Notes: generated from the sequence alone by a model not told the origin. 64,000 nucleotides of DNA from Clostridia bacterium (GCA_900768545.1 CAAGDD010000004.1:17250-81249); one strand, 5' to 3'. Positions 31,463-31,579 are shown, counted from the first letter of the stretch. Numbers and translations are program-made.

Positions 31463-31579
31463 GGGGCGAAAAGGCAAACTCGCGTTTGCAAAAATCCAAA
31501 AACAAAAGGCGGCTCAAAAGATTTTGACCGCCCCGCGTTTTTGGATTTTGGGCGGGCGCTGCCCGCCACTTTTCGCCCC
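31463..31579 (-). repeat. GC-rich cloverleaf-like intergenic element, copy B
   Basis: Closing stem GGGGCGAAAAG/CTTTTCGCCCC (11 bp) around three hairpins: GGCGGGC-gct-GCCCGCC, a long CAAAAATCCAAAAAC.../...GTTTTTGGATTTTG helix with a GGCGG/CCGCC tip, and GCAAAC-tcgc-GTTTGC. Confidence 0.7.

Follow-up and report, generated by a model that had tools for sequence, protein, structure and literature searches.

Element B is a 117-bp near-perfect palindromic four-way junction at positions 31463-31579 of a 64,000-nucleotide stretch of DNA (the window; GCA_900768545.1, CAAGDD010000004.1:17250-81249) from an uncultured human-gut Clostridia bacterium, and is one of at least five members of a structural family, termed A to E, that stand at the 3' ends of genes within the window. 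The evidence leans somewhat past even towards B being a copy of a lineage-specific family of intergenic palindromic DNA that behaves as a selfish or self-extending repeat, akin to repetitive extragenic palindromes (REP) and bacterial interspersed mosaic elements (BIME), to MITEs (miniature inverted-repeat transposable elements) and to the GC clusters of organelles. The palindromy of the elements is read here as a property of the DNA, any RNA role being secondary. As a class, they are best described as REP/MITE-like structured intergenic repeats that are apparently undescribed, and full-text literature searches found no description of such elements.

A family of four-way junctions

The closing stem of B is formed over 11 bp by the terminal arms GGGGCGAAAAG (31463-31473) and CTTTTCGCCCC (31569-31579), to which no strand is assigned, and encloses three hairpins of 16, 59 and 17 nt joined by linkers of 0-1 nt. 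Read on the minus strand, these are H1 (GGCGGGC-AGC-GCCCGCC, 31551-31567), separated from the closing stem by one unpaired base in an otherwise contiguous junction; H2 (31491-31549), a 59-nt hairpin whose AT-rich outer stem (AAAAUCCAAAAAC/GUUUUUGGAUUUU) is capped by GGCGG..UCAAAA/UUUUGA..CCGCC; and H3 (GCAAAC-GCGA-GUUUGC, 31474-31489), which carries a GNRA loop on this strand. Both the termini and this minus-strand order of helices had been proposed in a first-pass annotation of the window; the former are exact in the sequence and the latter agrees with the fold. The element is flanked by ...CTT|GGGG and CCCC|ACC (CTTG / GGTG) and adopts an identical shape on both strands. The minimum free energy of a 136-nt segment is -74.1 kcal/mol on the minus strand, where shuffles average -46.8 kcal/mol (z = -6.5), and -70.6 kcal/mol on the plus strand, where they average -40.1 kcal/mol (z = -8.5); none of 200 shuffles was as stable. 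The fold of B is far beyond chance, and in a sliding 140-nt fold scan B is the most stable segment of the whole AT-rich window (36% G+C).

In the same scan five segments, A to E, stand out at -62 to -75.5 kcal/mol; the window averages about -25 kcal/mol (sd 6.7), and the next most stable segment reaches -48 kcal/mol. A junction descriptor seeded on inverted 7-mers recovers these five and no others, at -57 to -76 kcal/mol. It demands at least 7 bp in the closing stem, three hairpins exactly and no more than 6 unpaired junction nucleotides; applied to first-order Markov-shuffled windows, the descriptor gives only 1-2 weak matches at -19 to -44 kcal/mol. The descriptor search with its Markov controls was used in place of a family covariance model, MAFFT being unable to align the unrelated interiors. 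It also replaced RNALfold-style local folding with a junction filter, which recovered only part of the elements owing to the way local structures are reported. Each of the five is a perfect four-way junction: a closing stem of 8-13 bp surrounds three hairpins, never more or fewer, and the linkers measure 0-2 nt.

Element A (30022-30152, plus strand) has the termini GGGGCGAAAAAC / GUUUUUCGCC(A/C) and a B-like architecture, and lies 15 nt past the canonical terminator of the DegV gene. Element C (50925-51054, no strand assigned) has the termini of B and occupies the gap between convergent acyltransferase and HlyIII genes; its first base is the G of a TAG stop codon, which a CTAG overlaps, and its H2 core is a hairpin resembling a bidirectional terminator. 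Element D (57708-57841, plus strand), situated between the convergent PPDK and veg genes, consists of a closing stem GGGCGACG/CGUCGCCC and three hairpins. Element E (36973-37081, plus strand) begins 15 nt past the ACPS gene and is built of three hairpins within a closing stem GUGCCAAGAAAUU/AAUUUCUUGGCAC that is followed by TTTTTT.

What unites these elements besides their architecture is a short terminal sequence. The 11-nt termini of B and C are identical and A matches them at 10 of 11 positions, so that the three can be written as GGGGCGAAAA(G/A), while the corresponding end of D is similar and that of E is different. A search of the window for the terminal 11-mer, allowing one mismatch, gives five occurrences where 0.76 would be expected: B and C each contribute both of their arms, and A its 5' arm. 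The interiors of A to E are unrelated in sequence, and the termini alone are held in common. Copies of interior arms that could have served as template-switch donors were sought in the neighbouring sequence and the window, with chance-level short matches only, and no further copies of an element occur in the 10-kb flanks of the window. The earlier proposal of a family comprising A, B and C, with shared termini and architecture, thus holds for all three members, exactly for the termini of C and nearly so for those of A, but it missed D and E as well as the DNA-level character of the family.

Distribution, descent and remodelling

Within the species, A, B and E are fixed among the strains compared: nine conspecific contigs carry them at 96-100% identity, and C is found in ten. 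In some conspecific strains (L014/L016 = L027/L029), a 150-nt duplication of the GGGtGRT 3' end lies between that gene, the upstream neighbour of B, and the element itself, which suggests structural instability beside the palindrome. Sister species whose GGGtGRT is 86-92% identical to that of the window have no element at the B site, where the next gene follows 11-123 nt after GGGtGRT or a T-box leader is found. At the A site, one sister species has a plain terminator after DegV (L022) and another has no element (L018), and the E site carries a plain terminator after ACPS and no element. Neither the fold scan nor the descriptor detects any strong element in the 21 kb of syntenic DNA of each of three sister species. 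It had been implied that B is a conserved structured RNA of the GGGtGRT operon; the absence of B from sister species with so similar a GGGtGRT is the outcome that had been set in advance as refuting a conserved cis-element. On these comparisons a role for B as a conserved regulatory RNA of the operon is not supported, and it should not be treated as such.

The sites at which elements can be compared with a simpler or a different state point to their possible origin. The closing stem and T-run of E align with the plain ACPS terminator of the sister species (GTGCCAAGAAA vs GTGCTAAGTAAA, after which come T-runs and, downstream, a conserved promoter region), and about 90 nt of hairpins in E sit where the loop region of the terminator was; the closing stem of E is the ancestral ACPS terminator stem. 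The veg-PPDK site (window 57561-57893; loci L143-L162) is dimorphic within the species and carries either D or a different four-way junction, D', with the closing stem CGGGCGAAG/CTTCGCCCG, which is followed by an additional 1.35-kb gene encoding a Beta_helix domain. Strains with D and with D' are 98.7-99.1% identical over 1.7 kb of flank. In the window-type haplotype, D has remnants of D' on its flanks, namely the 5' arm and the 3' half of H2, which suggests that D either entered a D'-like ancestor or took the place of its interior. Furthermore, the H2 core of D', AAAAAAATGAAGTC-TGCCC-GACTTCATTTTTTT, is homologous to the H2 core of C and the termini of the two are similar, which relates elements at different loci by descent.

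Variation between strains tends to alter the length of arms or to perfect them. H1 of D' varies by extension or duplication of its palindromic tip, giving elements of about 116, 130 and 157 nt in intergenic regions of 135, 149 and 182 nt. In H3 of D, a 6-nt insertion turns loop bases into three new pairs. In C, one pair exists in the states T-A, T.G and C-G, alongside other variants that perfect the stem.

Similar junctions are found in one other lineage. A scan for the exact termini, restricted to one genome per species, returned nine loci, of which only that in Neochristensenella (L001) has the same architecture; Gimesia, Chloroflexota and the other loci proved to be unrelated long hairpins or loose folds. 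The Neochristensenella-like genome (L001/L090, 50% G+C) contains GC-rich four-way junctions (about 70-75% G+C), one of them with exactly the 11-nt termini of B. It also contains two nested junctions with other termini, in which the central arm of the outer junction is itself a junction; the inner cores have a common sequence with compensatory differences. The junction loci lie at 2143-2372, 3644-3753, 4209-4436 and 4476-4612 of L090 and at 1-120, 1409-1517 and 1975-2124 of L001, forming a dense cluster within 2.5 kb that is about 68-75% G+C and is accompanied by extra perfect hairpins.

A scan of metagenomes for the termini gave 107 loci that are mostly unrelated palindromes, two of the candidates (L086 and L035) being different repeats, and yielded L090 together with repeat units from the termite gut. 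The latter are GTAG-tagged REP-like units, GTAGGGGCGAAAAATTTTTCGCCCCTAC, which occur in pairs or arrays in termite-gut and similar metagenome contigs (L071, L072, L106, L130, L049, L038, L103 and L115). The stem of these units, GGGGCGAAAAA/TTTTTCGCCCC, is identical in sequence to the termini of A, B and C, which provides a lead to, rather than a demonstration of, a possible REP-like origin of the termini. Other metagenome contigs (L128, L069, L043, L099 and L050) carry long near-perfect single hairpins of about 117-128 nt with ATTT/AAAT flanks and the ends GGGGCGAAAATATGC...GCATATTTTCGCCCC, probably an unrelated MITE of another organism. Viral contigs gave no matches, and a BLAST search of B against plasmids and phages gave none either.

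If B is a copy of a selfish or self-extending palindromic family, copies bearing short GGGGCGAAAAG-like termini would have spread to gene 3' ends, where they overlie or adjoin intrinsic terminators, and the palindromes would colonise, or grow from, terminator hairpins. Rapid remodelling with pairing retained could then proceed by tip extension, arm-to-arm correction, wholesale replacement of hairpins and nesting. The route may be template switching in quasipalindromes, an established mutational mechanism (Ripley's model and later work in E. coli), and/or the action of a structure-specific HUH-type enzyme.

Several observations weigh against this account. No transposase is seen in the window or in 10 kb on each side, no target-site duplication abuts A, B, C or D (at B, a 5-nt CAAAC is offset by 2-3 nt from the ends and is compatible with chance), and no pair of empty and filled sites was found within the species, leaving transposition hypothetical. 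The element interiors are unique within the 84 kb of genome examined, and the case for a copy-and-paste origin comes from the termini and one shared hairpin core. Some features are compatible with an RNA function, namely the GNRA loops, the wobble-mediated compensatory series in C and a modest strand asymmetry of G.U pairs, and termination at B is a prediction from sequence only. Finally, every element has exactly three hairpins, nested ones included, which is unexplained by random palindrome growth and may reflect some structural constraint or specific machinery.

A bolder formulation, tentative and rather doubtful at present, would make the elements an unrecognised, structure-defined class of mobile DNA in Christensenellales-like Clostridia. 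Such a "cloverleaf palindrome" would be defined by a perfect four-way junction of free sequence; it would enter or grow from hairpin loops or arms, especially those of terminators, would nest recursively, as in L090, and would be kept by an HUH/Y1-type or junction nuclease or by self-templated repair. It might also mark sites of gene gain and loss, as at the Beta_helix indel and the 150-nt duplication.

Transcript ends and a possible RNA role

The gene calls and Pfam matches confirm the position first given for B, between a NifU-like/GGGtGRT operon and yjzC. The GGGtGRT gene (31635-32630, minus strand; Pfam GGGtGRT) ends 55 nt upstream of B, counted from its stop codon, and has as its operon partner a NifU-like gene (32630-33310, minus strand) with a weak Pfam NifU_N match. 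The closest named homologues of this GGGtGRT belong to "Clostridiales bacterium" and Candidatus Caccopulliclostridium. On the other side, B ends 50 nt 5' of the ATG of a yjzC-like gene encoding 55 aa (31245-31412, minus strand; Pfam YjzC), which has its own AGGAGG ribosome-binding site. The two long open reading frames (ORFs) previously noted as spurious (31281-31880 on the plus strand and 31351-31584 on the minus strand) both exist and run through B. A third ORF (31245-31601, minus strand) begins with GTG, encodes 118 aa and continues in frame through B into yjzC. Gene callers have already been misled by the element, as several public contigs annotate this 118-aa "YjzC" fusion instead of the 55-aa YjzC.

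Hairpins flanked by an A-tract and a T-tract, the anatomy of intrinsic terminators, occur in B, C and D' (the central hairpin in each) and in D (the first hairpin). In B, the terminator-like core lies within H2 (31503-31536, minus strand) and reads GGGGCGGUCAAAAUCUUUUGAGCCGCC followed by UUUUG, the U-run going on as UUUUU at 31498-31502. The pairing is GGCGGUCAAAA-UC-UUUUGAGCCGCC and then UUUUGUUUUU, and a simple terminator scanner does not flag it, its loop and bulge rules excluding the stem. On this anatomy, the terminator of the NifU-like/GGGtGRT transcript is most likely provided or enclosed by B, which would also insulate yjzC. In the minus-strand transcript, the H2 core and U-run would act as a Rho-independent terminator and as a 3'-end protector of the operon. 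As an efficient internal terminator would stop the RNA first, the full junction would not ordinarily be transcribed, and its formation would be confined to read-through RNA or single-stranded DNA.

The minus orientation originally claimed for B is weakly favoured by the terminator-like core, by three G.U pairs and a GNRA loop (GCGA) on that strand, and by a stability about 3 kcal/mol greater than that of the plus strand. The order of helices is uninformative: since the short-long-short order is identical on either strand, it is insufficient by itself to orient B. In one strain, moreover, two G-to-A changes break pairs on the minus strand of B that stay wobble pairs on the plus strand.

These strand differences bear on the alternative that the elements are functional structured RNAs, serving as 3'-untranslated-region caps against 3'-5' exonucleases, as small RNAs or as protein scaffolds that need the junction, with the sequence drifting and the pairing kept. 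Such a role would account for an architecture that is strictly kept while its sequence is diverse, and for the location of every element at a gene 3' end. The GNRA or otherwise stable loops fall on the strand of the upstream gene (GCGA on B minus, GAAA on C and D plus), the three G.U pairs of B occur on the minus strand only, C minus likewise has three and is 7 kcal/mol better than C plus, and the T-A, T.G and C-G states of C among strains form a compensatory series that would fit an RNA role. Nevertheless, this explanation is unlikely. Watson-Crick pairs number 44-53 per element, against 0-3 G.U pairs (about 3% of all pairs), and the two strands of an element fold almost equally, within 0.5-7 kcal/mol. 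Orthologous sites of the sister species have no elements, strains that are 99% identical carry two unrelated interiors at one site, and the two substitutions described above break minus-strand pairs of B. Element A, in addition, stands 3' of a canonical terminator, and in B the internal terminator-like core would end transcription before the junction is complete.

Searches of RNA databases likewise provide no family to which the elements belong. At gathering thresholds, Rfam identifies one tRNA only in the whole window, and a permissive search of 29950-31650 gives only a chance-level microRNA-type hairpin on H2 (26 bits vs a gathering score of 66). The sole ARAGORN match is tRNA-Glu at 49330-49404, with no tRNA or tmRNA at the elements. 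A tRNA-like cloverleaf was considered for B and rejected, its arms having loops of 3-4 nt and its closing stem 11 bp instead of the 7 bp of an acceptor.

Several other features of the window were observed alongside the elements. Between A and a PP-loop ATPase gene lies an ORF of 38 aa (MKKRKNKKQFESKNDPLGSYTGTALVGDEMPVQDADDL; 30188-30304, plus strand), which is called in all conspecific contigs, is kept in sister species and has no Pfam match. Upstream of tyrS, a T-box leader (33430-33645, plus strand) contains the GGTGGTACCACG motif at 33613-33624; a default Rfam scan misses it because its score of 83.2 bits is just below the gathering score of 93. Two direct repeats of 131 nt (20638-20768 and 20991-21121) share 94% identity at a distance of 353 nt and overlap two neighbouring ORFs on the minus strand (113 and 128 aa), which may be tandem paralogues. 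The segment 62750-62870, after a YpeB-like gene, is a very A-rich low-complexity region of overlapping AAAAAATAAT-type repeats.

Remaining alternatives and known systems

It is also conceivable, though quite improbable, that no mobility is involved and that each element has grown in place from a terminator hairpin by repeated template-switch mutations, the shared termini being convergent or an accident of composition. Growth of this kind would fit the orthology of the closing stem of E with a plain terminator, the tip-extension polymorphisms of D and D' and the stem-perfecting variants of C. It fits poorly with the exact 11-nt arms of B and C and the close match of A, given 0.76 expected occurrences, with the recurrence of the same termini in L001/L090, and with an H2 core common to C and D' at separate loci; five convergences on three hairpins in one species, with none in three sisters, would be implausible. 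A conventional MITE, in which the 11-bp terminal inverted repeat is used by a DDE transposase elsewhere in the genome and the interior is arbitrary cargo, would explain the inverted termini that are identical in B and C, nearly so in A and repeated in another genus, as well as the lineage-specific presence and the size of 110-135 bp, but is very improbable in view of interiors that differ between copies, termini that differ in D and E under the same architecture, "termini" of E that are an ancestral terminator stem, and the lack of target-site duplications (A to D) and of a transposase (window and 10-kb flanks) already described.

If the reading as a lineage-specific family of palindromic DNA is correct, the elements would represent a bacterial repeat conserved in shape, as a perfect and sometimes nested four-way junction, while the sequence is free. 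Finders of repeats and noncoding RNAs that depend on alignment would miss such a family. It would also provide a natural setting in which to study the growth and upkeep of perfect palindromes by template switching or by a dedicated enzyme, and it may show how terminators become colonised and whether strain-level gains and losses of genes in abundant uncultured gut bacteria are seeded by the elements.

Among known systems, some can be set aside readily. Integron attC sites are rejected on the termini, as GGGGCGAAAAG/CTTTTCGCCCC do not conform to RYYYAAC...GTTRRRY, and on the housekeeping nature of the neighbouring genes. The noncoding RNA arrays of UG27 reverse transcriptases keep their structure while being diverse in sequence, and require an adjacent reverse transcriptase and an array, usually within a prophage (bioRxiv 10.64898/2026.09.22.753630). 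These arrays and those of retrons are rejected here, as the gene calls contain no reverse transcriptase and the elements occur singly, scattered among housekeeping genes. No support was found for DNA uptake sequences or Chi sites.

The inverted terminal repeats (ITRs) of parvoviruses such as adeno-associated virus (AAV) are three-way T- or Y-shaped hairpins at the ends of linear viral genomes, where they serve rolling-hairpin replication and exist in flip and flop orientations. Like the elements, AAV ITRs consist of a long palindromic stem around small palindromes, form a multi-way junction in single-stranded DNA and have equivalent orientations; the elements differ in being four-way junctions with nothing pointing to the end of a replicon.

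Correia/NEMIS, ERIC, RUP, BOX and the Rickettsia RPE all have a conserved full-length consensus, and most have target duplications and a cognate insertion sequence. These bacterial MITEs with stable folds resemble the elements in their length of about 100-150 bp, terminal inverted repeats, strong fold, intergenic location and effects on transcript ends, and B itself has perfect 11-bp terminal inverted repeats. Unlike these MITEs, however, the elements show no full-length consensus, target duplications or cognate insertion sequence, and the 84 kb of DNA examined contains no parent insertion sequence with the same repeats.

Rho-independent terminators share their anatomy with the central hairpin and U-run of B and with the equivalent cores of C, D and D', and the closing stem of E with its T6 is an ancestral terminator. 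A single hairpin suffices for termination, however, whereas the two extra hairpins of B and its enclosing stem fall outside the standard mechanism.

The GC clusters of yeast mitochondria diversify rapidly and merge into new elements (PMC4478555). Organellar GC clusters are comparable to the present elements as GC-rich palindromes scattered through the AT-rich intergenic DNA of a compact genome that nest or merge and have a sporadic, lineage-specific presence. They differ in being organellar and eukaryotic, mostly single hairpins of 30-60 nt that form sequence families with putative target-site duplications, and in having no terminator-based four-way junctions.

REPs are units of 20-40 nt with a conserved sequence and a GTAG/CGTC tag, present in tens to thousands of near-identical copies and associated with a cognate Y1 transposase, RAYT (PMC3733652, PMC3333891, PMC3116915); in the window and the 10 kb to each side of it, no transposase gene is seen. 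The elements lack these hallmarks: neither a GTAG nor a CGTC tag occurs at the ends of B, no conserved full-length consensus copies exist in the window or the 84 kb examined, only about 11 nt are common to the copies, the interiors are unique, and the four-way junction is strict. On the other hand, REP, BIME and REPIN sequences are like the elements in being intergenic, in lying at gene 3' ends and in convergent gaps, in joining several hairpins into larger units able to fold, in having variable "structured spacers", in their proposed roles in termination and mRNA stabilisation, and in having no target-site duplications. By this analogy, REP and BIME are the nearest functional and positional analogues of the family to which B belongs.
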